Source: Promethearchaeota archaeon
GTDB taxonomy: Archaea > Asgardarchaeota > Lokiarchaeia > Sigyniarchaeales > SOKP01
Direction of reading: 5' to 3'
Assembly: GCA_019057865.1 (NCBI GenBank)
Contig: JAHLWP010000029.1
Span: forward strand, 1 to 55,598
DNA length: 55,598 nt
The translations under genes and the position numbers were made by a program. The notes beneath the pieces are model-generated. The model searched no databases. It had not been told where the DNA came from and saw only the letters and a program-made list of their open reading frames with translations. Positions 1,210-55,598 of the stretch are shown in pieces. Positions within the stretch are counted from its first letter, which is position 1. The number at the start of each line of letters is the position of its first letter.

Positions 1210-4200
1210 TTAAGGTTCTCTAAAAATTTGTTGTTGAGCTGTATTTATATAAGTACCGTCAGGAATGCCAAAATTAATGGGATCTTCAGGGAAGAAATAA
1301 ACCCAGACTTCAGCAGTATCTTCATCCCATGATAATTCAATAGTAAATGACACATTAAAAAATCCGTCAGATGCAGTAAAACCTAAAAGACTATCTAAAA
1401 TATTACCACTACCATCCCATATAGTAATATTAACCCACTTATTACCTATTGCTGTTCCATTATCCCATCTTAGATAACCATATACATATAAAATATCTCC
1501 TCCATACCATTGCTGATGATATTCTGTATCATAATTTCCAGTAATAGAGGTTCCAGCAATAATTTTTATTGGAATAAGTGAACTATTAGTATAAACCATA
1601 TAATCTGTTAATGTGATATCTGGTAAGCTAATTGGGTATTGTATACCTCCTTCGAAATCAATTTTAATGTAATAATCTCCTCGTGGACAAGTTATATCAA
1701 TCCAATTAGAGAATTGATAGTAACCAGCATTATTTGTTATTCGTGAAGAGGTACCGATTAAATATCCAGAAACATCACTTAAAGTATTGTCCAGTAATTT
1801 AATATTAACAATTAAACCTCTTAAATATTCTCCACTTTCTTGAAGTGTTCCATCAACATGAAAGTTATCAATAACTCTTACTATAGAATTCACTGAATTA
1901 GCAAAAATAGTAACGGTTTCATTAATAATTACATATGTTCTATTAAATGTGCCAGATCCTGACCATTGAGCTCTAACTCGATGGAGTCCTGCATGCCAAC
2001 TAGATGTATTTGCTGAAATCCAAGCCAGTCCATTACTAACAGATGAAGATCCTAAAGGATCGCCTGTGAAAACATCTGTGAATGAGACAGTACCTCCGGT
2101 AACTGGACTTCCACTTAGGGTAATATATACTGAGAAATTAATAGACCCTCCTCGATAATACCATTCAGGAGGATTAGAATTGTTGTAAAATGACCGTGTT
2201 GGAATTCCATCCACGAAAAAGTAGATATTAATATCATCTGGATCAATTACTTTCAAATCATAAAAGCAGGTTTCAGAGTCAGTAAAATTACTCATGAGGT
2301 TTAAATTAAAAAAGTAAGGATAGCTAGTACTTGTATAATCAAATAATCCATTGAATCTAACTTCCAAAGTATAATTTTTAGCAGGTGTTGAGGCAGAAAC
2401 ATAATATGTTAGATCAATTTCTCCAGTCTCGTCAAGAGTCAATGAACCAGAATATAAGTTTAAATAATAGGAAACATCTGTTACCCCATCCATTAAATGA
2501 ACAGAAATTACGCTATTTATAATTGGGTTACCTTTAGAATCGTTTAAATATCCATGAATTAAGAAGTTCCTTCCAACTGAACCACTCCTATTAACTTGAG
2601 GCGGTTGAGGACATCTATCAAGATTAATATTAATTAAATCATCTAAAATATAATAAGAGTAATTATATCTATTATTCCAAGTAGCATAAATTAAATGTGG
2701 TCCTGCTATAGTATTATCATTTATTGGATAAATTAATTCAGCATATCCAGATGTAGTTTGGGCAGAACCTAATGGTTGATCTTGAGTCAGATCATAAAAA
2801 TCTACCCATTCATTATCTGGGATTGGATCTGGTCCATATTGGAGATAAACAGTTAAATTAAGATCATCATTACGATTGATTGTTGGATTAAAAATATCAT
2901 TAGAGGGATATCCATTTATCCAAAAGTTGAATGATAAGGTTGCTGGTGCTTCTACTTTTAATTTATAATAGAAAACTGTTGATGTACTTAAACCTGTAAG
3001 GTTAAACACATATGGGGGTTGATATGGATAACTTGTTAAATCAATTGTTCCATTAAAATCTAACCTTAATGTGTAATTACCTGGTGGTGTGTTAGGATCA
3101 ACTCCAAAAGTTAAATCAAAAGTTCCTGTTGAATCTGTTTGATAAAAGTTACTTCCAAAAGGGGTTAAATAATACCAGTAATCACTACCCCCTCTCAAAA
3201 ATCTCAAAGAAATTACAGAATAGGCTAAAGGTCTATAACTATTAAAACCATCAGTAATATTTCCAATAATGTTAAATGTAGTGCTTCCGCCTCCTGTACG
3301 ATTAATAATTCTTGGAGTTGGTCCAGAAATAGCATTAATCGTTGGATTCTCATCTAAGATAAAATACGAATAATTTATTATTGATTGACTAATGTTCGCA
3401 TATAACAAATTAGGACCTGAAATACAATAATCTCCTACATCATAAGTTATAGAAGCGTTGCCATTTATATCTGAAATAGCACTACCGATTTCAATATTTC
3501 CTCGAGAATAATCATAAAAAAACACTTCCTTATTGGGTTTTGGACCAAAATTTTCAAGCATCACCCTAGCGGTAAGAGTTATAGTATCAAATCTCGAAAC
3601 AAGTGGAATATTAGGATTGATTGCTGGTGTATTATTGATATAAAACCAAACTGATAATGATTTTGTAATATTAAAGTCCCATCTATTACTTGAATTAGTT
3701 ATAGATGGCTGAAAAACAGGAATGGGTCCTATTAGACTATCAATCCACCAAGTTCCATTAAAATCAACTCGTATTTCATATTGACCTGAGGGGACAAAGG
3801 AATTTATACTTAAAGTTGTATCAAATTCACCACTGTTTCCTGTAGTTTGTGATATTGGATTAAATGCCCCAGGTTCTTCGATAGTTGTTCCTTTATGAAG
3901 TAACACAAAATTAACCTCTGCATCTTTAACTCTTTCTCCATTTAATGGGTCATATACATATCCTTGGACGTAAGTTTCATCATCCAAATGATCTGATCGA
4001 TTTACTTCAGTTGGATTCACATCATTGAGACTAACTCCAATATTTCCCAAAATTAAAGGAACATTAGGAGGCCAAGTATAGTTAAAGCTGAAAAAATCAT
4101 ATCTAGCTTCGATATTATGTGGCCCTATGACATAAGAATTATCTATATTAACTGATATGCTTGCAGTACCACTGACATCTGTATCATCTACTCCTAGAAT

Positions 4201-41245: not shown

Positions 41246-42064
41246 TTATTCTTTATTTTCTCCTGGTTGTTCATTTTTTCCTTCTTCCTCAACTCCTAAC
41301 TGGGTGACCATAGCTTTTTTCAATTGACTTATATTTTTTGGTAACCCAAACATATCAGCATATTTATCAGTAGTAGTTAATTCTTGAGATCTTCCTTTTT
41401 TTACTGCATTTACGAACCCATTATCAATAAGATATTTTACATGTTCATAAGCTCCAGTTCCTCTTAATTTTACTACTGTTGATTTTAATATTGGTTGCTT
41501 TAAAGCTATTACAGTCAAAGTTCTCAAATAACGTTCTGCAATAGCTCCACCTTTAGCAAATTTTGATACTTTTTCCGTATATTCAGGTCTTATCTGCATT
41601 TGATACCTATCCCCAATTTGTGCTATTATCAATGCAGTGGAGCGATCTAAATAATCAAATGCTATTTCATTGGTTAATTCTTCCACTTCTTTTTTAGGTA
41701 ATTCTAATTTTGTTGATAGTTCTTCAATATTTAAAGGTCGACCAGCGGCATATAAGGAAGCTTCAATTAAATTTCGATGAAATTCACTTACCTGCCTTTT
41801 TAACAATTCTTCATCCAATTCTTCAACTTCTATAGATTCTCCTTCAATAATAGAATCTACCTTTTTTATCATCAAAAGTTCAGTATCAATTTCATCTACT
41901 TCATCAGTAATATTATTTTCAGAAACAACTTCAAATTCTTCTTCATTCTTTTCAGTTTTGGTAATTTCGTCTAATTCTTCATCAAGATCTTCGGAAACTT
42001 CTTCTAAATCTTCAATAGGTTCTTTATCTAAATTATTATCTAAATTCTCGTTAGAATTATTCAT
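41246..42064 (-). CDS. scpB: Condensin kite subunit ScpB with acidic N-terminal extension
   Basis: IEASLYAAGRPL, TLTVIALKQPI, LRG..AYEHVK.L, TT.KYADMFG. Confidence 0.9.
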   Translation of the reverse strand: MNNSNENLDNNLDKEPIEDLEEVSEDLDEELDEITKTEKNEEEFEVVSENNITDEVDEIDTELLMIKKVDSIIEGESIEVEELDEELLKRQVSEFHRNLIEASLYAAGRPLNIEELSTKLELPKKEVEELTNEIAFDYLDRSTALIIAQIGDRYQMQIRPEYTEKVSKFAKGGAIAERYLRTLTVIALKQPILKSTVVKLRGTGAYEHVKYLIDNGFVNAVKKGRSQELTTTDKYADMFGLPKNISQLKKAMVTQLGVEEEGKNEQPGENKE

Positions 42065-42091: not shown

Positions 42092-43090
42092 CTATCTAGT
42101 AATTACAGAAATATCTTTAAAATCTTCATTTTGAGATAAAGTCAATTTATTTCCATTGGATAAAAACATTAATGCTAAAAACATCCTTACTAAGGCAAAT
42201 TTCCTGCCAATATCACTTTCTTCTTCAGTTTTAATAATATCAGTTAAGTTATAAAAACTAGTTGGTTTATTGTCTAAATCAATTGTAGCTTTTATACGAT
42301 TGAGCCATGATTCGTGTAATTCTTGTATTGTTTGATCTTTTCCACTGATATGTTTTAAGAGTTCCCTTGGTAATTGTGCTTTAGATTTTATTTGTAGTCT
42401 TTGTTGCTTTAATTCTTCCTTTCTCATTTGTCTTCTTCTTATTTTTTCCTTATTTTGCATTACTTCTATGATTGCAGATCTCATTGCATCAAATAATTCA
42501 TCTTTCGTAGCTATTTGCATTTTAGGTTGTATAGGTTGTGGTAATGCTTTTGGAATGGATCGAGCATGTCTTTCTCTAAATTTTTTTAATTCTTCCATTT
42601 TCTGTATTTGTTCTTCTTCTCTGATAATGCTTGAAATTTTATAATGATGCAAACTTGCTGATGTTTTAAGTGCAATACCAGATATTTTATAATTAATTAA
42701 ATCCTCGTGAAGCATATTGTCAAAAAATTTATCAACTAAACTAGCCAAATCATAAAATGCAATTTCCGACTCTTTTGCCAACTCAGGATCTAATAAACTT
42801 GAATAGGGTGGCTTTTGCCAAAATTTCAATTCCATCTTTTCTTTTCTTAATAAAGCAAGATCCTCTTCTTCATCAAATCCAGCAACTAGTTCTTCTTCAA
42901 GTTCTTCTGGTTCTTGAGACCTATCGACAAATTCAGGATGAGAAACAATTTTTTCAAGTAATTCGATAATATCTTTCTTTTTAGACTTTGATGGTATTTT
43001 AATATTATTCTTACTAGCGAATTCTCTTAATTCCTTTACTGTCCATTGAGTAAAATTAAATTTATTATGTAAATCTTGCTTTTCTGATAT
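42092..43090 (-). CDS. scpA: Kleisin ScpA with N-terminal HeH (Rho-N/SAP-like) domain; probable ATA start at 43090 (first ATG at 42835)
   Basis: Lies between the smc remnant and scpB; C-terminal FLALMFL...L.Q.EDF. An 85-codon open in-frame extension begins AGGTGA-6nt-ATA. Confidence 0.8.
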   Translation of the reverse strand: MSEKQDLHNKFNFTQWTVKELREFASKNNIKIPSKSKKKDIIELLEKIVSHPEFVDRSQEPEELEEELVAGFDEEEDLALLRKEKMELKFWQKPPYSSLLDPELAKESEIAFYDLASLVDKFFDNMLHEDLINYKISGIALKTSASLHHYKISSIIREEEQIQKMEELKKFRERHARSIPKALPQPIQPKMQIATKDELFDAMRSAIIEVMQNKEKIRRRQMRKEELKQQRLQIKSKAQLPRELLKHISGKDQTIQELHESWLNRIKATIDLDNKPTSFYNLTDIIKTEEESDIGRKFALVRMFLALMFLSNGNKLTLSQNEDFKDISVITR

Positions 43091-43104
43091 TTTTTCTCAC
43101 CTTT

Positions 43105-43335
43105 TTAATTTTCTGTAATGGTTGGCTCAATATCTTCAAGTTCTAAAAGTCTTTTAGCTTCTTCTTCTAAATCGACACTAAAGATATCGGTGATCCCACT
43201 TTGTTGCATTGAAACTCCATAGATTCTATCTGCATTAACAATGTTTTCCTCACGATGGCTTATCACCATAAATTGAGCTTGAGATGCAAATTCTTTGATA
43301 ACCATACTAACTCTATGTACATTAGGACTACTCAT
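43105..43335 (-). pseudogene. smc: Isolated 3' end of condensin smc (post-D-loop part of the head domain)
   Basis: PNVHRVSMVIKEFASQAQFMVISHREENIVNADRIYGVSMQQSG is the canonical SMC C-terminus (QF.VISH H-loop, AD.IYGV) directly upstream of scpA-scpB. Similarity stops abruptly at ~43327. Confidence 0.85.
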
Positions 43336-43881
43336 ATTTAATCATTTAGCTATAATAACTATCTAAGATAAATTATTCTCTATTCCTTTATTTTATTTAG
43401 CTATAGTATGATGATAGTATTTTACCTTAAAAAATATTAATAGTTTATACTACTATTAATAATCATTTACAAGAAAAATAATTACTCTATTTAACGACTT
43501 AACATATTGAATAAAAATTAATTTCTAAATATTTAGTAATTTTAAATTGGATATTTTTCATATTCTCTTTCATCAATCACCAACTCCTTTATAAATAAAT
43601 GAAGGAAAAGTGGATGCAATTTTCAAAATAAAGAAGATTTTTCAAAAATAATGTAAAACGGGTTATAAAGACGATTAATGAAATTTTTTTTTGATCTTTC
43701 CAAAATAATACAAAACTTATTCTTTAAATTTATGCTAGATATGGTAAAAGAGAAAGCTCTCGAGTAATTTTCTAATAATCAAATCTTTATACGACTCTAG
43801 TAAATAAATTGCATCAACTAAAGCAATAAATATATTTGGATTATAAATTTATAATTATTTTCAATTTTGACTTGGTTGATG

Positions 43882-45879
43882 TTAATCTTTTTTATTGGGA
43901 TCTTTTACCTCATCCAATTCTATCAAATCTGCTCTTGTTTTCTTATTATTAGAAACCTTTGTACTAAGATCATAATCGTATTTTAACACTTCAGACAATG
44001 AAATTATATTAACTTCATCTGAATTTCTAAATTTTCTTGTAAGAGATTCTTCAAATGTAGTTATAATTAATTGGCTGATTAGTCCTTTATCACAAATGTC
44101 TGTTAAATAATCAATAAGGTTAATTCGGTTTTCAAAATTCAAGTGTTCTAATGGTTCATCAATGAATAAGAAAGGAAGGTCTGTATATTTTTTAGCAAGC
44201 ACAGTCTTTATAAGAACTAATAAGATCATTTTTTCCCCTGCGCTGGCATTTTTATAGGATATATTTTCTCCATTTTTTTCAAAGTACGGTAAGTAATCAT
44301 CAGTAAAGAATAATCTTCTTTTCTCTGAGGGAAAAATTTTTTGCCAAATGTTCTGGATCTCATCTTTAATTTCGTTTAGGCTAACATTTCTTTGTTTATC
44401 CAGAACTTTTTTAGTTACCACCTCGATTAATTCACAAATTAAACCCCCTTTTATATTTTTCTGGTATTCTTTCTCATATTCTAAAGCACCTCTTACTTTT
44501 TCAGCAGCTTTTATTTCACTTAGTTTTTTCTGAATTTCTCTTTCCCGACTTTCATACTTTTTTCTTTTATCTTTTGATTGCCTTAATTCAGATTCAATCT
44601 TTTCTTTTTTCTCTTCATACTCAGATTTCTGTTCAGTCATCTCTTTTATTTTACTCGGATCAAACCTCCCTAGAGATTCTATTAATTTTAGAGAATCTTC
44701 TAACATTTGCTCTGAATCTCTTAAATTTTTTTCTTTTTTTCTTAAATCTTTTAATTCCTCATCAAACTGAGAAGTTTCTCTATGTATATGCTCTAATTCC
44801 ACGTGAATGTCCTTATGGAGTTCTAAAAATTCTAATTTTTTTAACGGTTTTTTACATAGCGGGCAGTCCACTTCAGGAATGTCGTATAGGTTATGTTCTA
44901 GTTTATCCATTATTTCCTGTATTTTTTTTCTCTCTTCTGTTTTAACGTTATTTTCTGCAATTTTTTGTTGTATTTTACTTATATCATCTCGATATTTACG
45001 CATATTCTTATGTTTTTGTTCAATCAATTCATTAATATTCTCTACTCTCAATAAAAATCCTTGTAGATTAAATTCTCGAATGTTAATCTCTAGAAATAAT
45101 TCCTTTTTCTGGTTATATATATTTTCGAGTTTTTCTAATTCTTTATTAAAAGTATAATGGTCCCTGTAATCTTTCTCATATTTCTCAGCTAATTCTGATC
45201 TTTCCTTTTCTTTTTTGAGAATTTCATCATCTACGTTCTTAATATTTTGGAGAACCATGTTTTTTTCTCTTTGCAGATCGACTTTTTTTCCTAGATCCTC
45301 CGGTTCTTCTATCTTTTCTAACTTCTCAATATAAGTTTTAGTTTCTTTTTTCTTTTTCTCAAAATCATTTTTTAAGTTTGTCACATATCTATAAAATTCA
45401 TTAATTTTTCCAATTCCGACCAAATTCTCCAAATAATCAATTAGATCTCTCTTATCAACCTTTAAAAAGTTATATATTTCTCCTTCAGGAGAGTATAAAA
45501 CATTTTCTAAAAACGACCGATTTGCTTTAAAAATATCAAGTATAAATTCTAATATCTCCACCTCGTCCTCAATTATTTCCTCCGTATATCTTTTGATTAA
45601 TTTATGTGTCTGTTTTCCATTATAGCACCGAGTAATTTCATACTTATCCTCTAAATGCTCAAACTCTAAAATTACCTCTGTATCGTCAACACTCCCTATC
45701 CTTTTTAATTCTTCATCTTTTCTATTTCTAACTCTTCCAATTAAACCATAAATAATAGCCTCTAGAGTGGATGTTTTCCCAATACCATTAAATCCAATAA
45801 TGAAATTAACTCCCTTTTTAAATTCCAAATTTAATTCTTTATGGCATTTCCACTCTTTTATCGATAGTTTTTTAATCAT
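43882..45879 (-). CDS. Rad50/SbcC-like SMC-family ATPase with zinc hook and short coiled coils
   Basis: GFNGIGKTS Walker A, central CPLC, ASAGEK signature, FIDEP Walker B; no Mre11/SbcD adjacent. Confidence 0.85.
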   Translation of the reverse strand: MIKKLSIKEWKCHKELNLEFKKGVNFIIGFNGIGKTSTLEAIIYGLIGRVRNRKDEELKRIGSVDDTEVILEFEHLEDKYEITRCYNGKQTHKLIKRYTEEIIEDEVEILEFILDIFKANRSFLENVLYSPEGEIYNFLKVDKRDLIDYLENLVGIGKINEFYRYVTNLKNDFEKKKKETKTYIEKLEKIEEPEDLGKKVDLQREKNMVLQNIKNVDDEILKKEKERSELAEKYEKDYRDHYTFNKELEKLENIYNQKKELFLEINIREFNLQGFLLRVENINELIEQKHKNMRKYRDDISKIQQKIAENNVKTEERKKIQEIMDKLEHNLYDIPEVDCPLCKKPLKKLEFLELHKDIHVELEHIHRETSQFDEELKDLRKKEKNLRDSEQMLEDSLKLIESLGRFDPSKIKEMTEQKSEYEEKKEKIESELRQSKDKRKKYESREREIQKKLSEIKAAEKVRGALEYEKEYQKNIKGGLICELIEVVTKKVLDKQRNVSLNEIKDEIQNIWQKIFPSEKRRLFFTDDYLPYFEKNGENISYKNASAGEKMILLVLIKTVLAKKYTDLPFLFIDEPLEHLNFENRINLIDYLTDICDKGLISQLIITTFEESLTRKFRNSDEVNIISLSEVLKYDYDLSTKVSNNKKTRADLIELDEVKDPNKKD

Positions 45880-46633
45880 TTGAATTTCCCCTACTAATTA
45901 TATCATTAAAATTCTTGTCAAATTCTTCCATATCGATATTTTCTAAGATAAAATCTGAAAATAATCTAATAAAGGGATTTATTTCATAAAGGTTGAGTTT
46001 AAGCATTTGTTTTTTTTTATCTTTATGAAATCGCTTTGATTTAAAATTTTCAAAGATATCAGTTAGATATGAACTAAATTGTTCTGTTGGATTTGGTGCT
46101 TGAGATTTCGCAATTTTTTTTATTTGTTTTTCTATGAGTTCTATAAATCGGTAGCGAAAAGTAATTTCCTCATCTAATAATCTTGCTAAGGCTTCAGCTT
46201 CAAAATCTATTAAAATCTCTTGGAGGTCAGAATAAATTTTATTTTTATACAATTTAAAAGATGATAAAGAATTATCGTTCCAAATTATAATGATTCCATC
46301 TTGCCCTTTACTATTAGTAAATAAACTCTGATAATCTTTAAGCTCCTCCTCATTTATGGTTGGCTCAGAATTATCATTAAATATTAACAGATATTCCTTT
46401 TGATTTATCTCAATAATATATCTAAATGGTAAAATTTCTGTAGTCTTAGGTATTTTTTTTAAAAAATCGATTTCTCTTATGCTGATTTCTGGTCGACTGA
46501 ATAATAGCTCTTTAATTCTCTCAAAAAATTCTAGAAATAAGTTCATTCTGTCATAATCATCTGAGAAAGTACTTTCAATTTTCATGAGATCTTCGGGATA
46601 TTTATCTGGGTCCTTACTCAATTTAACATACAC
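45872..46633 (-). CDS. Hypothetical protein overlapping both the PIN and Rad50-like genes
   Basis: 253-aa ORF overlapping its neighbours by 8 and 11 nt; alpha/beta core. Confidence 0.65.
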   Translation of the reverse strand: MYVKLSKDPDKYPEDLMKIESTFSDDYDRMNLFLEFFERIKELLFSRPEISIREIDFLKKIPKTTEILPFRYIIEINQKEYLLIFNDNSEPTINEEELKDYQSLFTNSKGQDGIIIIWNDNSLSSFKLYKNKIYSDLQEILIDFEAEALARLLDEEITFRYRFIELIEKQIKKIAKSQAPNPTEQFSSYLTDIFENFKSKRFHKDKKKQMLKLNLYEINPFIRLFSDFILENIDMEEFDKNFNDIISRGNSND

Positions 46634-47444
46634 CTAAGCTAGTTTTTTCTGCTATCGCAGGTTCAAATACATCAAAAATCCAATCTTCATATTTTATTCT
46701 TTTTCTAATCTTAACTCTTTTTGGTTTGCCTTCAGTCACTTTCTTTAGAATAAATCTTCTAAATTCTCTTAGGTCATCATAATGACAGCATTTATATAGG
46801 TGCGTTAAGTGTGTTAAAAGCATAATCCCATTTACATTTCTGGTCTTGTAAACTTGACCTGCTAATGATATTCGTCCTTGGGCTTTGACATGAGCAACAA
46901 ATTTACGAAAACTGTCATCACCTGTTACAATTAAATATTTATAATTGTGGTGAAGGTTGATTTCTTCTAGCGCGCCTAGTAAAAAAGATAAATCTCGATA
47001 ATCAATTTCTGACAACCGTCTATTAGGATTCCTAGTAAAATTATCTGCTTTAATTTTCAGGTCTCTTAAAGCATCACGGTCCACAATATGGTTGTTTATT
47101 CCATTTAATAAAATATCTAAAAAATTTCGCTGATATGATGCGCCCAAATTGTTTAAAAACCTAACCTCATAGAGAAACGTTCCCTTATACTCCTTTTCAA
47201 TACCTAAATTTGAAGCAAAAAATCCTCCGAAAGAGCAATCTGCTTTTATACCCGCAAAAACATTCCTGAAATCATTCAGTATATCATGGTAATGCCTATT
47301 TCTAAATTCTTGTTCTGAGGGATAATTCTCCTGGCTATATTTAGCTTCAGAAAGATATTGCATATAATGGATTAGGGCATTTGTATCCATAATAGTGCTA
47401 CACCTATTTGGACAATCTCTATTAATTCGGGGACAAATAACCAT
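46623..47444 (-). CDS. PIN-domain ribonuclease-like protein
   Basis: IMDTNAL...E...IDYRDLSFL...LIVTGD acidic PIN pattern. Confidence 0.7.
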   Translation of the reverse strand: MVICPRINRDCPNRCSTIMDTNALIHYMQYLSEAKYSQENYPSEQEFRNRHYHDILNDFRNVFAGIKADCSFGGFFASNLGIEKEYKGTFLYEVRFLNNLGASYQRNFLDILLNGINNHIVDRDALRDLKIKADNFTRNPNRRLSEIDYRDLSFLLGALEEINLHHNYKYLIVTGDDSFRKFVAHVKAQGRISLAGQVYKTRNVNGIMLLTHLTHLYKCCHYDDLREFRRFILKKVTEGKPKRVKIRKRIKYEDWIFDVFEPAIAEKTSLGVC

Positions 47445-48150
47445 TTATTACTCACAACTATTATAAGTAAAAATCTATAAAAATTGAAAACATTGAAAAA
47501 CAAATTTTCCAATTAGAATTATATGATTTTTATCTTTAATATTACCAAAAAAATTACCCTTTTTATAATTATTCAAATTCATCAAAAAGAAAAAGAATTG
47601 GTCTATTTAATAGCTTAACATATTAAATAGAAATTAATTTCTTTGTATATAATAAGATTAATCCAAACAACAACATCATTAGGTTTAATTTCTATTACTT
47701 TTAAAAATGCTTCAATTGCTTAAGTAAAATTTTTTTCGTTAAAAAAATCTGATATCCTTTCCATACAATTGTGACTCAATATTTCTTTATTAGAAGACAT
47801 ACCATTTATCTATGACTTCCTCAAAAGTTTCATTTTCAGAAATACTTATTTCACTTTTTTTTACCTTATTTACTATAATACTATCAAGAATTCTTATTAT
47901 CTTAAATATCCTTAGAATACAGTTTGACTTTAACTTAATAATTTCAATAACAAACAGCATGAAAACGATAAAGAATAGGGATTAATTTTAATATTTACTG
48001 GTGCTGGATACATATCAGTAGGACTAGAATTGTCAACATCAATAGATACGCCTAAAAATAACTTTCCACAATCAAGACATTGGTTTTCAAATTTATTTAT
48101 TAGATCATTTAATTTTTCTTTTCTATTTTCCAAAAATTTTCACAATTAAT

Positions 48151-48312
48151 TTATTTTAAAACTTTTTTAACTATTAGATTATCTTCTTTTAATTGAATAC
48201 CAACATAGGTACCCTTTTTTATCTTTAATTCTTCGCACATCTCTTTCGGAATAACAAGTGCCAAACTATTACCTAATTTTACAACTTTAGATACGCTAAT
48301 ATTTTGAGACAT
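48151..48312 (-). CDS. AbrB/MazE/SpoVT swapped-hairpin DNA-binding protein (53 aa)
   Basis: Manual translation MSQNISVSKVVKLGNSLALVIPKEMCEELKIKKGTYVGIQLKEDNLIVKKVLK; below the ORF-track cutoff. Confidence 0.85.
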   Translation of the reverse strand: MSQNISVSKVVKLGNSLALVIPKEMCEELKIKKGTYVGIQLKEDNLIVKKVLK

Positions 48313-48333
48313 GAAAAATACCTTTAAAATTTA

Positions 48334-50190
48334 TTATATAATGTGTTCTATAGCTAATTCTTCCATAGAGCTTTCAGGGGCTAATTGAGTAATTACAACA
48401 TAATCGGATATATTTGCTATATATTCTTTCAGTTTTTCCATACGATCATCATCATAACTTGTAACAATTTCATCGATTACAAATAATGGAAAATCTGGAA
48501 GATATTCTTCTTTAGCAGCAATTAATAGAGTTATGCCAATTGTGTATCGTTCCGATGTTGAAAGTGCTTCTAGAGCCCAATCAGATAATATTTTTCCATC
48601 CTTTTCTCGAGTGATGTAAATCTTATAATCATCTTTAATTAAAACCTCCTTAAAATCAGTAAAGCCTAGTTCCTCGTATATTTCGTTTATTCTTTCATTA
48701 AATTTTTCAGCCGCTTTTTCTGTTATTTCGTCTTTCCTTCTTTTTAAATAAGAAAAACACTCGTCTAAAAATTCTATCTTATTTGTTAAAATTTCGGCTC
48801 TTTTTGTGCTATCTTCCAATTCTTTGATTCTCTTTTTTGTTTCTTTTATTTTAGATTCAAGAATTTGGATTCTGTCTTCAATTTTATCTCTCTCCTTTTT
48901 TAATTCAAGTATATCATCGCTAACATTTTCTAATAATTTGTAAATTTCCTTTTCTAGTGATTTTTGTTCTTCTATATTATCCTCTAATTCTTTTTGGATT
49001 TTGTCTAAATCTAATTCTCTTCTAGCTAAAGATTTTTCGCTTTTTGATAAATTTGTTCTTTGTATACTTAATTCTCTTTCTTGAATTTGTAAGTCATTAA
49101 TTTCATCTCGATAATCTTCTATTTCTCTATTTACTTTTTTTAATTGTTTTGAATAATCTCTTTTGGCTAATTCAAGACTTTTTTCGAAATCTTGTAATTC
49201 TTTTAGCGTTAATGGTTTTCCACAAGCATAACATTTATCTTCTTCATATTTTTTTCTTTTAATCCAATTATCGTTTATTGATTTTAACTCATCATCAATT
49301 TTTGATAATTCTTGTTGAATTTCTTTCCTCATTTTTATGCTTTCTTGTAATGAATCTTTTAAAACCTCAATTCTTTTTGTAATCTGAGGGTGTTCCTTTT
49401 CAATTTCAGAAATTATTTCTATTAATCTGTTGATTTCCATTTTTAAATTGTTTATTTGTTGATTTAAACTTTCAATTTTTCCCTTTATCTCTCTTATCGT
49501 TTTGTCTATTTTTTCTTTCTCATTTTTTGTCTCAAAATATTTTTCTCTTAAATTTTTATCTTTCAATAGTTGTTCTTCATCAATTTCCGGAAGTTTTTCT
49601 AACATTTTTAAATATTTACTCTTTTCTTTTAAATCATTTTCTAATGTAGTATTAATTTCTTCCAGTAAAATCAAATCTCTTTTATATATTTGGTATTGAC
49701 GATTGTAATTTCGTTGAAATTTTTCTAAAGATTTAGCAATTACATCATAAGATTTACTACCTGAAATATCTTCAATATATTCCCTTATTGATTTACCATA
49801 AAGAATTGAATTCATTAATTTATTTTCAGGAGTTGCGAAACATACTTGTGATAAATTGATTCCTTTTAATGGAAATGGATCTCCAGAAATAGCTAAGAGA
49901 TAATCTTTATTTTGAGGTCTTCTAAATGTACGCTTCCAAGAATCAGTATCAGAAATCAATTCTACTTCTAATTTTTCATCTGGAGCAGTTGCGAACATGT
50001 TCATATAATATCCCTTTCCTTTTAATTCTGAAGTAGGGATTAGAAACAACTCCAAACCTCTTGTAAAACTTGTTTTTCCTTTAGCATTAGGAGCTTTTAC
50101 AACATTTAAGCCCTTTTTTAAATTAAACGAATAAGTGCCTCTAAACACTCCAACATTCTCAAAATTTACTTTAATTTCATCACTACTCAT
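48334..50190 (-). CDS. Archaea-specific SMC-related ATPase (Sph/ClsN/Arcadin-4-like) with central CxxC
   Basis: APNAKGKTS Walker A variant, CYAC hook, LSTSER signature, FVIDE, DYVVITQL. ATG at 50190 overlaps the upstream stop. Confidence 0.8.
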   Translation of the reverse strand: MSSDEIKVNFENVGVFRGTYSFNLKKGLNVVKAPNAKGKTSFTRGLELFLIPTSELKGKGYYMNMFATAPDEKLEVELISDTDSWKRTFRRPQNKDYLLAISGDPFPLKGINLSQVCFATPENKLMNSILYGKSIREYIEDISGSKSYDVIAKSLEKFQRNYNRQYQIYKRDLILLEEINTTLENDLKEKSKYLKMLEKLPEIDEEQLLKDKNLREKYFETKNEKEKIDKTIREIKGKIESLNQQINNLKMEINRLIEIISEIEKEHPQITKRIEVLKDSLQESIKMRKEIQQELSKIDDELKSINDNWIKRKKYEEDKCYACGKPLTLKELQDFEKSLELAKRDYSKQLKKVNREIEDYRDEINDLQIQERELSIQRTNLSKSEKSLARRELDLDKIQKELEDNIEEQKSLEKEIYKLLENVSDDILELKKERDKIEDRIQILESKIKETKKRIKELEDSTKRAEILTNKIEFLDECFSYLKRRKDEITEKAAEKFNERINEIYEELGFTDFKEVLIKDDYKIYITREKDGKILSDWALEALSTSERYTIGITLLIAAKEEYLPDFPLFVIDEIVTSYDDDRMEKLKEYIANISDYVVITQLAPESSMEELAIEHII

Positions 50191-50380
50191 AATATTTCGC
50201 CACAATATCATTAATTAATTTTTCTAATTCATCTTCAGCTTTTTTTGATAGATTTTTTTTATATATTTGATGATTTTCTATCAATTGCCTTATTCCATTT
50301 TCAAATTCACTAAACATTCGATCTTTAGATTCTTTACCTTCTCGAGTTCTTTTTTTATTGTTGGTTTCTTTTCTAGACAT
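50183..50380 (-). CDS. Small helical ORF, possibly the frameshifted C-terminus of the upstream ORF
   Basis: Its stop overlaps the start of the SMC-like gene; overlaps the upstream ORF by 91 nt. Confidence 0.45.
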   Translation of the reverse strand: MSRKETNNKKRTREGKESKDRMFSEFENGIRQLIENHQIYKKNLSKKAEDELEKLINDIVAKYYE

Positions 50381-50640
50381 TTTACTACCTCTTTAACAAT
50401 ATTTGGTAAATCTCTTTCATATATAGGTTCTGTAATAAATAAATCTAATTTATTATTACATCTTTTTTTTAATGACCATAATAAGGTTAACAATTCTCCA
50501 TTTGCTTCCATCAGGAAAGTTCTCGAATCGAGTTTTTCAATAAAATAGTTTTGCAAATTTTTTCTGTTTCTTCCTTTTTTCCAGTTCCAAATAGTTTTTA
50601 ATACACTATTTTCTGTACAATGAACTAATATGAATGTAAT
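50290..50640 (-). CDS. Small hypothetical protein; probable ATT start at 50640
   Basis: AGGTGA-6nt-ATT, then an open frame (TFILVHCTENSVLKTIWNW...) running into the tracked ORF 50290..50556. Confidence 0.55.
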   Translation of the reverse strand: MTFILVHCTENSVLKTIWNWKKGRNRKNLQNYFIEKLDSRTFLMEANGELLTLLWSLKKRCNNKLDLFITEPIYERDLPNIVKEVVKCLEKKPTIKKELEKVKNLKIECLVNLKME

Positions 50641-50657
50641 AATTTTTCACCTTAAAA

Positions 50658-50682
50658 TACTCGCGACGCAGCGTCGCGAGTA
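50658..50682. promoter_or_regulatory. Perfect GC-rich inverted repeat (hairpin or operator/loading site)
   Basis: TACTCGCGACGC-A-GCGTCGCGAGTA with 12-bp arms, in very AT-rich intergenic DNA. Confidence 0.7.
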
Positions 50683-50692
50683 AAATTTTATA

Positions 50693-51412
50693 TTAAACAT
50701 TTGAATCTTTAAGAATTTTATCAATATATAATGATATTATTTTTTTCTCTAATGTTCGCATAGATTTAATCTTTTCAAACTCAATTTTTGTTCTAATATC
50801 TTCAAACTCCAAATTTAACTTTAAACATTTTTTTTTTGTGATTTCTATGAGCGTTTCTTCACTTGGAATAGGAAATTCAATATTGTAAAGTCGATCTTTA
50901 ATCGCTTTGTCTATTAAGTCGTATCTATTCGTCGTTAATATCACTGATATTTTTGTTGTATTTAATTCATCTAATCGATGGAAAAACACATTATTTTGAG
51001 CAAGGTGCCAAGATTCGCCCTTAATCCAATCTCTTTTTGGAAAAATTGATTCACAATCATCTATAAGGATAATAGAATGTCTGAATTGAGTTGCTTTTTG
51101 AAAGAGAATGGAGATTTGTTGTTCTGACTGTCCATATAACGAACGAGCAATATCCGCACCGTCAACAAAAATCAAATGACTATTAAGTTCTTTAGCTATA
51201 ATTTTTCCAATTAGAGTTTTCCCTAATCCAACATCACCATGAAAGAGAAATCCTGATATTCCATCTTCTATATGGTATTTCTGCTGAAATCTTATTATTT
51301 TTCTGACATCTTCTAATATATTTTGATATTCTTCGCCAATAACATCGTTTTTATTTTGTTTAATTTCATCTGATGAATAAATTTTAAAAGCTTCTTCAGT
51401 TCTTCTTGACAA
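50693..51412 (-). CDS. Stand-alone classic-clade AAA+ ATPase (Vps4/Cdc48/Pch2-like module)
   Basis: GDVGLGKT, pore loop SLYGQSE, Walker B IILIDDCES, SRH TTNRYDLIDKAIKDR. Confidence 0.88.
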   Translation of the reverse strand: MSRRTEEAFKIYSSDEIKQNKNDVIGEEYQNILEDVRKIIRFQQKYHIEDGISGFLFHGDVGLGKTLIGKIIAKELNSHLIFVDGADIARSLYGQSEQQISILFQKATQFRHSIILIDDCESIFPKRDWIKGESWHLAQNNVFFHRLDELNTTKISVILTTNRYDLIDKAIKDRLYNIEFPIPSEETLIEITKKKCLKLNLEFEDIRTKIEFEKIKSMRTLEKKIISLYIDKILKDSNV

Positions 51413-51428
51413 TGTATTTCAATCCCTT

Positions 51429-52250
51429 CTACAATTCTCGTTCTTCTTCTAATTTTAATTCTTCTGCTAAATTAACCCATTGTTTCATAGCATATATCGA
51501 GGCTGTGTTAAAAATTATCTTTTTCTCCCCTAAGTGGTGTATTAATTTTATATCTTTTGGTTTTTTTTGATCTCTTTCTATTACATTAGTAAAATGTCTA
51601 TATTCTAACTCGCTGTCCTCAAAAAGTTTCTTAAAATCCTCTAATTTCATTTCTCCCTTAAAATTTTCAGCTACCATTAAAGCAGAAGCAATTGGGTATA
51701 TCAATCTAAATCCTTTTTGTAAAATACCCGATGCTATCATTCTACTAATTGAACTACCATAAATATCTGCTTCATAACCACGCTTTATAGTATCTTCAAT
51801 AAATTTTTCCCAAATAGATGTTAATTTAAGAAAAGAGTTTTCAATGTCTTTTCCAATAATTTCAATGTATCCATGTTCCTGAAGCAAAAACAGATTTTTA
51901 ACGACATTTCTCAATCCACTGCAAGCATTTCTAATAAAGAAAAATGGAATTTCTCCACTTTTCTTTCTTGTCAAGCGTTCTTCCATTTTTTCTAATGTCC
52001 CAGTTTTTTCATAGTATTCTTTATCATCTTTTAATCTTCGTTCAAGATCCTCTGCTTCAATTTTCCCATCAACAATTAATGCAAACATAACGGATAAAAT
52101 TGATTCAATCCCTTCAAGATGTGAGAATGTTGATATATCAAAAGATTGAACTCCTCTTAAAAGACGGTCGTTGCTACTGTCTAATCCGTTATAAATGAGA
52201 TCATCAAACGATTTTATTAAATAATTATACGCTATTCCTTCAATTTCCAT
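51429..52250 (-). CDS. Putative tandem winged-helix protein B (paralog of 52251..53072)
   Basis: LFLLQEHGYIEI...LKLTSIW wHTH pattern; colinear similarity to its neighbour. Confidence 0.7.
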   Translation of the reverse strand: MEIEGIAYNYLIKSFDDLIYNGLDSSNDRLLRGVQSFDISTFSHLEGIESILSVMFALIVDGKIEAEDLERRLKDDKEYYEKTGTLEKMEERLTRKKSGEIPFFFIRNACSGLRNVVKNLFLLQEHGYIEIIGKDIENSFLKLTSIWEKFIEDTIKRGYEADIYGSSISRMIASGILQKGFRLIYPIASALMVAENFKGEMKLEDFKKLFEDSELEYRHFTNVIERDQKKPKDIKLIHHLGEKKIIFNTASIYAMKQWVNLAEELKLEEEREL

Positions 52251-53072
52251 TTACGGACTCCCTCTTGATCTTCTTAGCCGATTTAAATAATCTTGAGCCG
52301 CTGTACGCCATACTTGTAAAGCTCTAACCGAATGTGGGTTAAAAATAACTTTCTCGTTATTTTTATACCCAATTAATCTAATTATTTCGCTCTTTTTTTC
52401 ATCTGTCCTGATTGAAATCGGAAAATAATAGTAAGGTAACCCCATATCAAGATATATATTGAGAAACCCCTCTAAAGAGATTTCATTATCATTGCTTTCT
52501 GCTCGGTTTATTGCTATAATAATAGGTTTAATGAACCTTATCCCTCTTTCTCCCACACCTAAAGCAAGCATTTTTCCTAAGGAGCTAACAAATACCCTTA
52601 ATTCTAATTCATCATTTATTATCATTTCTAATAAAGGATCCCAAATATCTGTTAGAGATATTAAACTACTATCTCTTATTGGTTGATCTGTTGGCTCAAT
52701 GCTAACAAGACCAAATGATGCTAATTTACTTAATTTTTGACGCCTTTTTTTAAGATCACCCAATAAATATCTTAATATTGAATAGGGAAATTTACCTCCG
52801 CTTTCTAAATCAAACTTTTCCCTGATTATATCATATATACCCAATTCATTGTATGTTTCTTCAACTTCGGACTCTGGAAAAAATCTAAAGGGATTTGAAG
52901 CTATCGTTAAATCAACCAATACTGTAACTATAATTTCGACGCCTCTTAAACCCATCCACGGAGATAAATCAAAGGATTGAATGCCTCTCAAAATTTCGAA
53001 ATCTCCACTCCGCATAGCGTCACAAATAACATCACATATCGTTTTTTCATGTGCACTAAACATATCTTCCAT
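52251..53072 (-). CDS. Putative tandem winged-helix protein A (paralog of 51429..52250)
   Basis: LSKLASFGLVSI...ISLTDIW; shares LRG(I/V)QSFD(L/I)S and K(V/I)IFN..S with its neighbour. Confidence 0.7.
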   Translation of the reverse strand: MEDMFSAHEKTICDVICDAMRSGDFEILRGIQSFDLSPWMGLRGVEIIVTVLVDLTIASNPFRFFPESEVEETYNELGIYDIIREKFDLESGGKFPYSILRYLLGDLKKRRQKLSKLASFGLVSIEPTDQPIRDSSLISLTDIWDPLLEMIINDELELRVFVSSLGKMLALGVGERGIRFIKPIIIAINRAESNDNEISLEGFLNIYLDMGLPYYYFPISIRTDEKKSEIIRLIGYKNNEKVIFNPHSVRALQVWRTAAQDYLNRLRRSRGSP

Positions 53073-53075
53073 TTT

Positions 53076-53543
53076 CTAATCGTCCTCCATTCTATTTTGT
53101 ATTTCTTTTTCTAAAAACTTTTGAGTGCCGAATTTTATTGCCTCCTCTTCGATTAATTTTTTCTTATTATTATGTGTTAGAATTACAGCGTTTAATGCAA
53201 TTTCTTCACTTATCCAAGTAATTACTTTATTAATATAATCAACAGTATTCTTAGAAACTCTTTTAGCATCGCTCTTTTCCATTATATCTTTAATATTGGA
53301 GACTGGAAACATTTTAGATTCTAAATTATCAGGATATTTTCCTAAAAAATTATATATTCCTACTTTTATTGAATCTTTTTGGATTGTTTTATTTCCTTTA
53401 AGACGAGTTAATTTTACCGCTATTGAAGTGATTTCTACCGATATTTTTGAAACAATATCATTAAACAAATCAAATGATACTTCAGAAATATCCTCGGCAC
53501 CATTATTTTTAAGAATTTGTGATAATACTTTTTTTGATAACAT
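53076..53543 (-). CDS. Divergent histone-fold doublet
   Basis: Two HMf-like folds: ILKNNGAEDISE...AVKL...GNKTIQ and FPVSNIKDIMEKSDAKRVS...A...KKKLIEEEAI. Confidence 0.85.
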   Translation of the reverse strand: MLSKKVLSQILKNNGAEDISEVSFDLFNDIVSKISVEITSIAVKLTRLKGNKTIQKDSIKVGIYNFLGKYPDNLESKMFPVSNIKDIMEKSDAKRVSKNTVDYINKVITWISEEIALNAVILTHNNKKKLIEEEAIKFGTQKFLEKEIQNRMEDD

Positions 53544-53684
53544 TATTATAAGATGGTTTATACATTTTTAAAATATAAACTTTCCGAAATCATATACTTC
53601 TATTTAATATATATTATTATTAAATATATATTTTATATCATATTAAAAATTTTTATAAAAAAGAAAAAGAATTTCATTATTTCA

Positions 53685-53942
53685 TTATTTTGTCATCTTA
53701 ATATGTTTATTTGCCAAATGTTTCTTTAAACATCCCTTTTCTTTGGCTTTATACTCGCAATAAGGGCACTCGTGCCATTTCACTCCAATATCATGTTTAT
53801 AAGCTAAATGCCTATTGAGATTTTGCTTTGCTTTTGTTTTATAATCACAATGGGAACACTCATGCCATTTTACTCTAATATCATGTTTATATATCTGCCC
53901 AGAGAGAGGTTCAAAAGGTCGTATTTGGGTGAAAACCCGCAA
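53685..53942 (-). CDS. Tandem C2H2 zinc-finger protein (start uncertain, possibly truncated)
   Basis: Two 30-aa repeats HDI.VKWHEC..C.YK.K....L..HLA.KH. Confidence 0.75.
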   Translation of the reverse strand: MRVFTQIRPFEPLSGQIYKHDIRVKWHECSHCDYKTKAKQNLNRHLAYKHDIGVKWHECPYCEYKAKEKGCLKKHLANKHIKMTK

Positions 53943-53988
53943 CTTATAAACTGGGCAGATGCAATTAATAATTCATCTTTTATATTAA

Positions 53989-54189
53989 TTAATTTACTGG
54001 AGAAAAAGAAGTCACCATCATTTTTATTGGGCGTTTTCTAATGAGGTATCCCTCTTTATAATAATGCCTTAAGAGAGATTCACTCGCCCTTGTTGATATG
54101 TCACCAATTTGATTCTCCACTTCCTTTACAGTAAGGGCTTTACCATCTAAAAGATTGAATATCTGCCTCATTCTATTGAATTTTTTCAT
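53989..54189 (-). CDS. Small winged-helix protein (possibly frameshift-truncated)
   Basis: LTVKEVENQIG...ASESLLRHYYKEGYLIR. Confidence 0.55.
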   Translation of the reverse strand: MKKFNRMRQIFNLLDGKALTVKEVENQIGDISTRASESLLRHYYKEGYLIRKRPIKMMVTSFSPVN

Positions 54190-54227
54190 TTTTGTTTACT
54201 CACACATCTTTTTCTTGAATTTCAATA

Positions 54228-54725
54228 TTAATGTTTCATTAATTTTAGAAATTTCATATTATTTGCCCGATCTTCTGGTGTAGCTTTCTTCCATGCGTTT
54301 ATGAAAGAATATGCCCGATATTCAGGACTCATTATGAACAAATATGGATCAATCTCATTTATAATTCCTTTTTTATCCCCCTCTTGAAATGCATCTTTAC
54401 CTAAATCTAATACTTTACTTCTTTCTGGAAGTGGTTTCTCATGAGAGATATGTTTAGATTGTTCATATTCTACTGGTTCAAGAAAGCCCAATATTGCTAA
54501 ATTTTTTTGAGTTTGATTCCAAAAATTTGAATCAAAATAAGCTTTTATTGGAAATTCAAAGCTTCTTTTCTCATCATTCCACAAAACTCTCCAAATAAAG
54601 AAGAAAAGATCACATGGAAAATCATCTACTATTACTATAAAATATTCAATATATTGAATTCTATATTCATGAACATTTCCAGTTTTGAATCTAACGATTC
54701 CTTCCTTGTTTGGGATTAAGTTCAA
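54228..54725 (-). CDS. Hypothetical protein
   Basis: 165-aa ORF; GAGGAG-6nt-ATT at 54743 may be the true start. Confidence 0.55.
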   Translation of the reverse strand: MNLIPNKEGIVRFKTGNVHEYRIQYIEYFIVIVDDFPCDLFFFIWRVLWNDEKRSFEFPIKAYFDSNFWNQTQKNLAILGFLEPVEYEQSKHISHEKPLPERSKVLDLGKDAFQEGDKKGIINEIDPYLFIMSPEYRAYSFINAWKKATPEDRANNMKFLKLMKH

Positions 54726-55282
54726 TAATTTCGGCTTTTTAATTATTATCTCCTCTTTTCTTCATTTATATATTAGTTGAAATACATATATTTAAAGGAA
54801 AATTCAATTCACCCCTTGCAAATAAAAAGTAACTGAACAGAGTAAATGTTTAGAAAAAGAGTTAAGATTCTTAGGTAAGAAAAATGGTTGAAGATTTTTT
54901 CTTTAAATATGAGATCTAAATTATCGTGTTAAAATTTTTCCTTTATATAGGATATTGAAAAAATTATATTATCTTATTTCGTTCTAACAGTAATATTTAT
55001 AATGTTATATTACCTAAGATATAATAGATAAAAAATACAAGCGAATTAGTAAATTTACATAACAAATAGTATTATTTAAAGAAAAAATTTTCATTCAAGC
55101 GGATTTTTTTCTTTATAAATGAAAAATGATAAAGATGATAATTGGTGATTTACATTTTTTTGTTTAAATATAAAGATATTTTTTTATATTGATTAAGATG
55201 AATCGCAATGACCGAAAAATAAAAGAGTGTTTTAAAAGCAATTTTGACAATTTAAAGTCTTAAATTTAGGAGGGGTAGTAAA

Positions 55283-55598
55283 ATAAGTGAAATAGGCGAA
55301 AAAGGCGAATTTAGTGATAAAGCTGAACAGGATGAATTAAATACTGAGAGCGATGAGGAGTTTGATGAAGGATTTCATGAAATGGAAGAATTAGCAGATG
55401 AGACTGATGAGGGGTTTAATAGCGGATTTCATAAGATGGAAGAATTAACAGATGAGACTGATGAGGGGTTTAATAGTGGATTTCATAAGATGGAAGAATT
55501 AACAGATGAGACTGATGAGGATTTTAATAGTGGATTTCATAAGATGGAAGAATTAACAGATGAGACTGATGAGGATTTTAATAGTGGATTTCATGAAA
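55283..55598 (+). CDS. Acidic tandem-repeat protein (partial; probable ATA start, first ATG at 55382)
   Basis: AGGAGG upstream; open frame SEIGEKGEFSDKAEQDEL...(GFHKMEELTDETDE[G/D]FNS)n to the window end. Confidence 0.65.
   Translation, partial: MSEIGEKGEFSDKAEQDELNTESDEEFDEGFHEMEELADETDEGFNSGFHKMEELTDETDEGFNSGFHKMEELTDETDEDFNSGFHKMEELTDETDEDFNSGFHE
55370..55598. repeat. 54-bp tandem repeat, at least 4.2 copies, runs off the window
   Basis: ggatttcataagatggaagaattaacagatgagactgatgaggggtttaatagt units at 55370, 55424, 55478, 55532 and 55586. Confidence 0.93.

Follow-up and report, generated by a model that had tools for sequence, protein, structure and literature searches.

The smc gene of the Promethearchaeota archaeon G000 (a 4.26-Mb MAG of 87 contigs with 5% contamination) is complete and ends in a foreign 3' part, and its original 3' end lies displaced directly ahead of scpA-scpB, at the other side of a genomic island. 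The window, i.e., the whole stretch of 55,598 nucleotides analysed here, is the entire contig C58 of this genome (Table 1). The original prediction, made from the window, was that smc is split by the island, and it is refuted by contig C80, on which this genome has smc in full length. The explanation favoured here, with fair confidence, is that a mobile island entered smc, displaced the native tail and supplied a replacement tail together with a nuclease gene, and that it may well spread in the way of a homing endonuclease, as do the mORFs of fungal mitochondria.

Table 1. Coordinates of the features in the window (no contig prefix) and on other contigs of G000
Feature	Position	Strand	Remarks
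scpB	41246..42064	(-)	PF04079, 1.5e-33; TIGR00281, 93 bits, over the cut-off
scpA (kleisin) with N-terminal SAP-like extension	42092..43090	(-)	probable ATA start
Displaced native smc 3' end	43105..43335	(-)	76-codon ORF: ATG-AGT-AGT, last 73 smc codons and native stop
Non-coding arm, scpA-proximal island end	43336..43475	(-)	about 140 bp, conserved in carriers
Island cargo	43476..55282	(-)	unrelated to the islands at the same site in other genomes
Three-gene module ending in a Rad50/SbcC-like ATPase	43882-47444
Operon of SMC-related ATPase, AAA+ ATPase, two 273-aa paralogues and histone-fold protein	48334-53543
5' end of giant acidic-repeat nuclease gene	55283..55598	(+)	runs off the contig in a 54-bp tandem repeat
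Full-length hybrid smc	C80:33793..38256		1488-codon open frame
3' part of nuclease gene	C80:38285..42028	(-)	convergent on smc, about 25 nt past the hybrid smc stop, runs off the contig
FrhB-like hybrid gene locus (L059, L058)	C23:21-5830 and C34:1-800		foreign 3' third, convergent acidic-repeat giant gene

Displaced and replacement 3' ends of smc

The ORF ahead of scpA, with its ATG-AGT-AGT at 43335-43327, encodes the SMC C-terminus from just past the D-loop via the H-loop (ISHR, read directly) to the stop, and thus contains the C-terminal head segment of SMC. It matched positions 175-219 of the 220 positions of Pfam SMC_N with an E-value of 8.6e-8, whereby the match stays under the gathering score because the ORF is only a fragment. 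The prediction that the last ~73 codons of smc, including the H-loop, precede scpA-scpB with an ATG-AGT-AGT ahead is borne out by both observations. Moreover, intact SMC proteins (approximately 1484-1491 aa, encoded upstream of scpA) of most of the other same-genus genomes searched have C-termini that share 96-100% identity with these 73 residues. Judged from its sequence, the resemblance of the fragment to smc is not a matter of chance, and the 76-codon ORF is the leftover of the original smc tail, outside the working smc. Since its ATG has no Shine-Dalgarno motif ahead of it (in contrast to scpA), is ATA in G129 and is deleted in G012 (in G008 the start codon is TTG), a stable MSSPNVHR... 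peptide is unlikely to be made from the fragment. A function of the ORF as a translational coupler to scpA was also considered and judged unlikely, scpA having a strong Shine-Dalgarno motif of its own and the fragment ATG none.

The smc on C80 is collinear with its orthologues across residues 4-1488 and scores 606 bits against the curated model TIGR02168 (cut-off 567), which, together with the contiguity of the orthologues with scpA-scpB in 13 genomes, identifies it as a true SMC gene. Walker B, D-loop and H-loop lie in one frame of a complete smc in G000 and in every carrier of the island. The SMC linked to scpAB, with its ~1480 aa, is about 300 aa above the usual length, and a Pfam hinge domain was undetected in the C80 SMC. 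The genome also encodes a second SMC paralogue of 1164 aa (C57:5832-9326; locus L057, 833-4327), in which the Pfam hinge is present and to which the SMC equivalog models give far lower scores than to the C80 smc.

The last ~73 codons of the C80 gene and the window fragment share 81% amino acid and about 75% nucleotide identity, and a run of 43 identical residues between them is encoded with many synonymous differences. Because amino acid identity is high despite the many synonymous DNA differences, the two tails do not stem from a recent duplication; each evolved inside a working smc. The longest identical run between the two copies is internal and not located at the breakpoint.

The ends of C80 and of the window carry the same 54-bp tandem repeat array of one gene, on opposite strands, the repeat encoding an acidic motif. 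The best match of the window end is the end of C80 (92% over 247 nt, with the final 35 nt identical), and the orientations of the two contigs are consistent with a single order, in which smc and the nuclease gene are followed by cargo, arm, fragment and scpA. On this evidence, C80 most probably joins the window end, with the caveat that several other contigs, with paralogues, also end in the 54-bp repeat. Of the three possibilities raised originally, the one in which the far end of the insert carries a replacement smc 3' end has therefore held, in the form of the full-length C80 smc with its diverged tail copy.

The other two possibilities, namely synthesis of SMC as two polypeptides, with the supplied ATG as a start, or condensin switched off until the element excises (a skin-like switch), are unneeded with a complete smc. 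An in-frame ATG (TTG in G008) ahead of the fragment in four genomes, and an open fragment ORF in all carriers, are what a truly interrupted smc might leave. However, smc is complete in this genome and in every carrier, no recombinase was found among the island ORFs scanned, and the fragment start is poorly suited to translation as described above, the first 35 codons being gone in G012 and G088. A real interruption of smc is consequently very improbable, and the same two facts of a complete gene in all carriers and no recombinase found speak against a skin-like excision switch.

Layout and turnover of the island in the genus

Related genomes were compared, a check proposed originally. In 13 same-genus genomes, smc is immediately upstream of scpA-scpB and contiguous with them. 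At least six other genomes have the island layout, i.e., smc with a foreign 3' end, convergent nuclease gene, cargo, arm, fragment and scpA. The full layout was found on single contigs in four of them, with islands of 13.4 kb (G012), 17.3 kb (G004), 6.5 kb (G008) and 9.1 kb (G018); G129 and G088 also bear the fragment. The fragment begins at the same codon in G000, G018, G004, G008 and G129. In G012 (L031, G012:C63 ~4085-4100) and G088 (L056, G088:C73 end), a secondary deletion between two AGATAG hexamers (microhomology) cost the arm its end and the fragment its first 35 codons including the ATG.

A chimeric window junction, or the origin of C80 and C58 from different strains, might be suspected in a MAG of this fragmentation and contamination in which both contigs end in repeats. 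The presence of the same architecture on single contigs in four independent assemblies rules out mis-assembly as a general cause, and the arm-fragment junction is conserved in six genomes, so that an assembly or binning artefact is hardly credible. In G129, smc and the nuclease gene are located in the middle (~700 kb) of the 998-kb contig C1, with about 296 kb following, and arm, fragment and scpA are on a separate 28-kb contig, C28 (~17.1 kb; loci L054 and L055). This arrangement may reflect a very large insertion, a rearrangement at the site or strain mixing.

As predicted, the island cuts scpA and scpB off from the smc promoter. The probable ATA start of scpA lies 6 nt past a GGTGA Shine-Dalgarno motif and 17 nt past the fragment stop. 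Residues 2-334 of ScpA have 80-97% amino acid identity to relatives, and the SAP-like extension is kept in all of them. No ATG, GTG or TTG is present at the scpA start (43088-43090); among 18 same-genus genomes, the aligned start is ATA, ATT or ATC (ATG in two), 6-8 nt past a strong GGTGA.

The arm was found solely in fragment-bearing genomes (G004, G008, G018, G129 and G012), each time abutting the fragment on its upstream side; island-free genomes lack it, and it was seen nowhere else. Its nucleotide identity to the G000 arm is 84-86% in the first four of these genomes and 77% in G012; it is better conserved than the adjoining coding DNA and contains a T-rich TATA-like box ~95 nt ahead of the fragment. 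The island genes adjoining the arm side in G012 point the opposite way, hence read-through into scpAB would not be a general solution. The best candidate function of the arm is that of an element-borne outward promoter keeping scpAB expressed, and it is also a candidate for a recognition site of the element. A noncoding RNA was dropped as an explanation, since an Rfam scan of 42800-44000 returned no credible RNA and RNAalifold no conserved structure for the arm. Ahead of the three-gene ATPase module, a segment of 102 nt (47562-47661) is 76% identical to 43444-43545, the island DNA just distal to the arm; this likeness may mark a repeated promoter-like segment.

The cargo includes two SMC/Rad50-like ATPases (43882..45879 and 48334..50211) with AAA_23/SMC_N matches, consistent with the prediction that the island carries SMC-like ATPases of its own. 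No DNA similarity was found between the islands of G000 and of G012, its nearest relative. The smc genes of this pair are 97-98% identical up to approximately C80:37990, whereas past this point identity falls to 63-73% over the last ~260 nt, and the two replacement tails are only about 70% identical. In comparison, the fragments are 99% identical in nucleotides over their 34 shared codons, and scpA is 96-97% identical. The drop in identity, the unrelated islands and the 99% identical fragments together indicate that island and replacement tail were exchanged after the two lineages split, and that the native fragment stayed: the island turns over rapidly between near-identical genomes. The foreign tract in the G000 smc begins ahead of the duplication boundary, by at least 55 nt, an offset that fits repair-associated co-conversion and not conservative site-specific recombination.

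In the ScpA+ScpB tree, the island carriers are scattered so that at least four gains or losses are needed; for instance, G004 is sister to the island-free G002 and G008 to the island-free G005. The smc tails of three island-free genomes (G002, G013 and G005; L019, L023 and L026) group with the island-borne replacement tails and not with the common native type; in these genomes, recombination between the two tail copies may have removed an island and left such a tail as its footprint. The 195-nt tail tree is poorly resolved because synonymous sites are saturated, and donor assignment from it is only suggestive. Exact-pattern scans of metagenome contigs detected no empty-site allele of the species and no other copy of the fragment.

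This pattern has also to be weighed against a single ancient insertion or duplication in the ancestor of the genus, inherited vertically and repeatedly lost in a precise way between the tail copies, with nothing mobile today. Arm and breakpoint are homologous in all carriers, the two direct repeats of ~220 bp would permit precise deletion, and the grouping of the three island-free tails with island-borne copies would follow naturally. Against it stand the unrelated islands and divergent replacement tails of G000 and G012 behind nearly identical smc genes, and a second, FrhB-like locus (see below) that is occupied in G000 and empty in G012. The fragments, moreover, cannot be old pseudogenes because they keep the amino acid sequence of a working SMC while synonymous sites between carriers are saturated. 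Such an ancient origin is, in our estimation, quite unlikely, and recent mobility of the island is preferred.

The convergent nuclease gene and its acidic-repeat paralogues

The convergent nuclease gene is the only gene common to all five islands in an all-vs-all protein comparison. Its probable ATA start in the window (55283-55285) follows AGGAGGGG, and the protein combines an N-terminus of acidic repeats with several treble-clef Zn ribbons and a Vsr-like PD-(D/E)xK domain. It is 65-73% identical among G000, G004, G008 and G018; the G012 protein is distant and has the same Zn ribbons and D-G-Y ... E-Y-Q-G motif. The gene also adjoins smc in seven further Promethearchaeota loci. Of five island-free genomes checked, G006 and G003 have no homologue and three others only ~45% identical paralogues or a remnant elsewhere; viral contigs contained no relative of the nuclease.

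Pfam recognized only DUF4379 treble-clef Zn fingers in the protein, and the Zn-ribbon repeats match PHROG 559, annotated as 'HNH endonuclease' (1.7e-46). The model of the 134-aa central domain (pLDDT 82.5) resembled Vsr with a Z-score of 9.5 in an exhaustive VIA search and the catalytic domain of I-Bth0305I (3r3p_B) with a Z-score of 9.4 (rmsd 3.3, 98/98 residues aligned, 17% identity). Foldseek gave no significant match for the isolated domain against the PDB and only noise for the 605-aa C-terminal model, and a sequence search of the PDB with the nuclease returned nothing. The invariant residues in two alignments (A1 and A2) are E-L-D-G ... E-Y-Q-G-x-Q-H, also read as E-L-D-G-Y, and an E-D-A-L-K stretch; the EDxHD motif is absent from both alignments, so the protein has the Vsr-like fold of that family without its sequence motif. 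By fold and family, the product of the island gene is thus a predicted nuclease.

Two related loci look different. A distant Promethearchaeota locus (L052, 8700-11700) consists of smc, a frameshifted nuclease pseudogene, a small Ras-like GTPase gene and scpA with an ATG start, and has neither smc fragment nor arm. The gene next to a distant Vsr-like nuclease paralogue in G000 (C41:126454-127824) shows no tail duplication.

A second hybrid gene, FrhB-like, is present in G000. This gene is 95-100% identical between G000 and G012 up to approximately C23:5390 and 60-80% identical beyond. The native tail of 226 codons has been displaced to C34, upstream of ribosomal protein genes, and is 95-96% identical to the intact gene of G012, in which the site is empty and the gene uninterrupted. 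The foreign tract begins ~400 nt upstream of the duplication boundary. At this locus, an occupied site and an empty one of two near-identical genomes can be compared for an element of the same kind as in smc. At both loci, smc and FrhB-like, the native copy matches relatives and the inserted copy is divergent in DNA.

The acidic N-terminal region has paralogues on at least seven other contigs of G000 (C83, C49, C23, C77, C48, C69 and C63), at contig ends, and many contig breaks coincide with the 54-bp repeats. The paralogues differ in their C-termini: the one on C48 has a LAGLIDADG domain according to Pfam, and by eye, LAGLIDADG-like motifs were recognized on C69, HNH-like motifs on C23 and C83, and DEDD exonuclease-like motifs in one paralogue. 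Several are convergent on conserved genes, those on C48 and C83 on aminoacyl-tRNA synthetase genes, beside which no displaced tails of the synthetase genes were found.

Proposed entry into smc and relation to known systems

According to the favoured explanation, the island would have entered smc at approximately codon 1416, just ahead of the Asn-Val-His-Arg codons, bringing a diverged version of the last ~73 smc codons so that a full-length hybrid smc was kept. It would also have brought, in order, the convergent nuclease gene, the variable cargo and the ~140-bp arm that abuts the fragment. In smc alleles that lack the island, the nuclease would make a cut near codon 1416. An occupied allele would then serve as the template for repair, by which the cut allele would gain replacement tail, nuclease gene and cargo, and upstream smc sequence would be co-converted to a variable extent. 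Nuclease activity, its target and homing as the mode of entry are what the architecture and the fold of the protein suggest. Several points count against homing. As the NVHR region is intact in the replacement copy as well, base substitutions would have to account for immunity. The motif of the nuclease differs from EDxHD, Foldseek found no significant match for its domain, and neither a viral relative nor an empty-site allele was found. Furthermore, smc and fragment are on different contigs in G129, the join of C80 to the window rests on shared repeats, and islands of up to 17 kb far exceed the typical cassettes of free-standing homing endonucleases.

A classical integrative element would be an alternative mode of entry, with a tyrosine or serine recombinase, a circular form, an att site in smc and an attP carrying the target 3' end, as in elements of the tRNA-gene/guaA type. 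Such elements, directed to the 3' ends of tRNA or protein genes, likewise bring a 3' end that keeps the target functional and leave the displaced end as a mark of the other junction; a replacement 3' end with a displaced native end is their hallmark. Both island ends are conserved (replacement tail with nuclease gene, and arm), and five genomes agree to within ~3 nt in the breakpoint between arm and fragment. However, the integrase expected originally was not found: the ORFs scanned from five islands contained no integrase or recombinase Pfam family, although a recombinase may have escaped detection, as many of these ORFs belong to no recognizable family and part of the G000 island is unassembled. 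The repeat gtcctaatgtacataga, expected at the other junction as well, has only an imperfect counterpart on C80 (13/17 bases at the breakpoint), and no identical repeats at both junctions coincide with the boundary of foreign DNA, as an att core would. The foreign tracts in smc and in the FrhB-like gene, beginning upstream of their duplication boundaries as given above, also differ from such elements. Conventional integration is thus unlikely, and a skin-like switch differs further in that no gene is inactivated here.

The closest parallel to the favoured homing-type spread is provided by fungal mitochondrial mORFs that make hybrid genes, such as atp6-ORF360 of Allomyces macrogynus and those at atp6, atp9, cox2 and nad3 of Glomus sp. 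(PMC3630166, citing Paquin et al. 1994). In these, endonuclease gene and foreign C-terminus travel together, and the native C-terminus stays behind downstream; with a DNA identity of 64-81%, the duplicates encode nearly identical protein, and it is the native copy that agrees with the sister species (PMC3630166). The smc island shares with mORFs an endonuclease gene at the 3' part of a conserved gene, DNA-level divergence of the duplicates (~75% here), a native copy that matches the sister taxon, and a presence that varies among close relatives. A foreign in-frame C-terminus with the native one displaced downstream is found at both the smc and the FrhB-like loci. An endonuclease gene at the insertion is indicated by fold and family evidence for the predicted nuclease, the gene of which always adjoins smc. 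Unlike mORFs, the island resides on an archaeal chromosome and not in an organelle, its target is the condensin operon, its unrelated cargo amounts to 6.5-17 kb, and a conserved arm marks its far end. Its nuclease combines Zn ribbons with a Vsr-like domain and is not of the LAGLIDADG or GIY-YIG type (although a paralogue in the same genome is LAGLIDADG), and, unlike in several fungal mORFs, its gene is convergent and not in phase with the host gene. To our knowledge, the hybrid-gene signature of mORFs has otherwise been described only from fungal mitochondria. A limited literature search found no description of such an arrangement for smc or for Asgard archaea.

The nuclease itself recalls I-Bth0305I and other EDxHD Vsr-like homing endonucleases, as well as the free-standing Vsr-like genes of 'fractured genes' (PMC3239194, PMC2677866). 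Similar to the I-Bth0305I family, it has a Vsr-like catalytic fold and its gene is tied to an interrupted conserved gene. In contrast to that family and to the fractured genes, the locus contains neither an intron nor an intein or split intein, an array of DUF4379-type Zn ribbons serves as the DNA-binding part, and the host gene is mended by a duplicated tail instead of protein splicing. Free-standing homing endonucleases of the seg/mob type in T4-like phages are intergenic, lie beside conserved genes and spread with co-conversion of flanking markers; they involve neither duplication of the tail of the target gene nor a large cargo.

A broader reading can be offered only tentatively, as a possibility to which we give somewhat less than an even chance. 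Chromosomes of Asgard archaea (Promethearchaeota) may host an active family of free-standing homing elements whose giant proteins have acidic-repeat N-termini and interchangeable nuclease heads (Vsr-like with Zn ribbons, LAGLIDADG or HNH-like). These would enter the 3' ends of essential genes (smc, FrhB-like and aminoacyl-tRNA synthetases), a foreign tail would keep the host gene alive, the outward arm would restore expression of scpAB, and 6-17 kb of cargo (defence-like and SMC-like systems) would be carried between species.

The analysis corrects a tempting misreading, since condensin in this archaeon is neither split nor switched off. Displaced tails and 54-bp arrays are a recurrent cause of contig breaks and of mis-annotated 'split genes' in these MAGs, and sharp drops of identity at the 3' ends of genes serve as markers of transfer between species. 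The hybrid-gene signature of mobile endonucleases now extends to chromosomes of the archaeal lineage closest to eukaryotes, where its sites are the essential operon of chromosome organisation and at least one further locus. Provided that the nuclease is the driving force, large cargo islands could in this way pass from one Asgard species to another with no need of an integrase, and such cargo would include defence-like modules and an SMC-related/histone operon.
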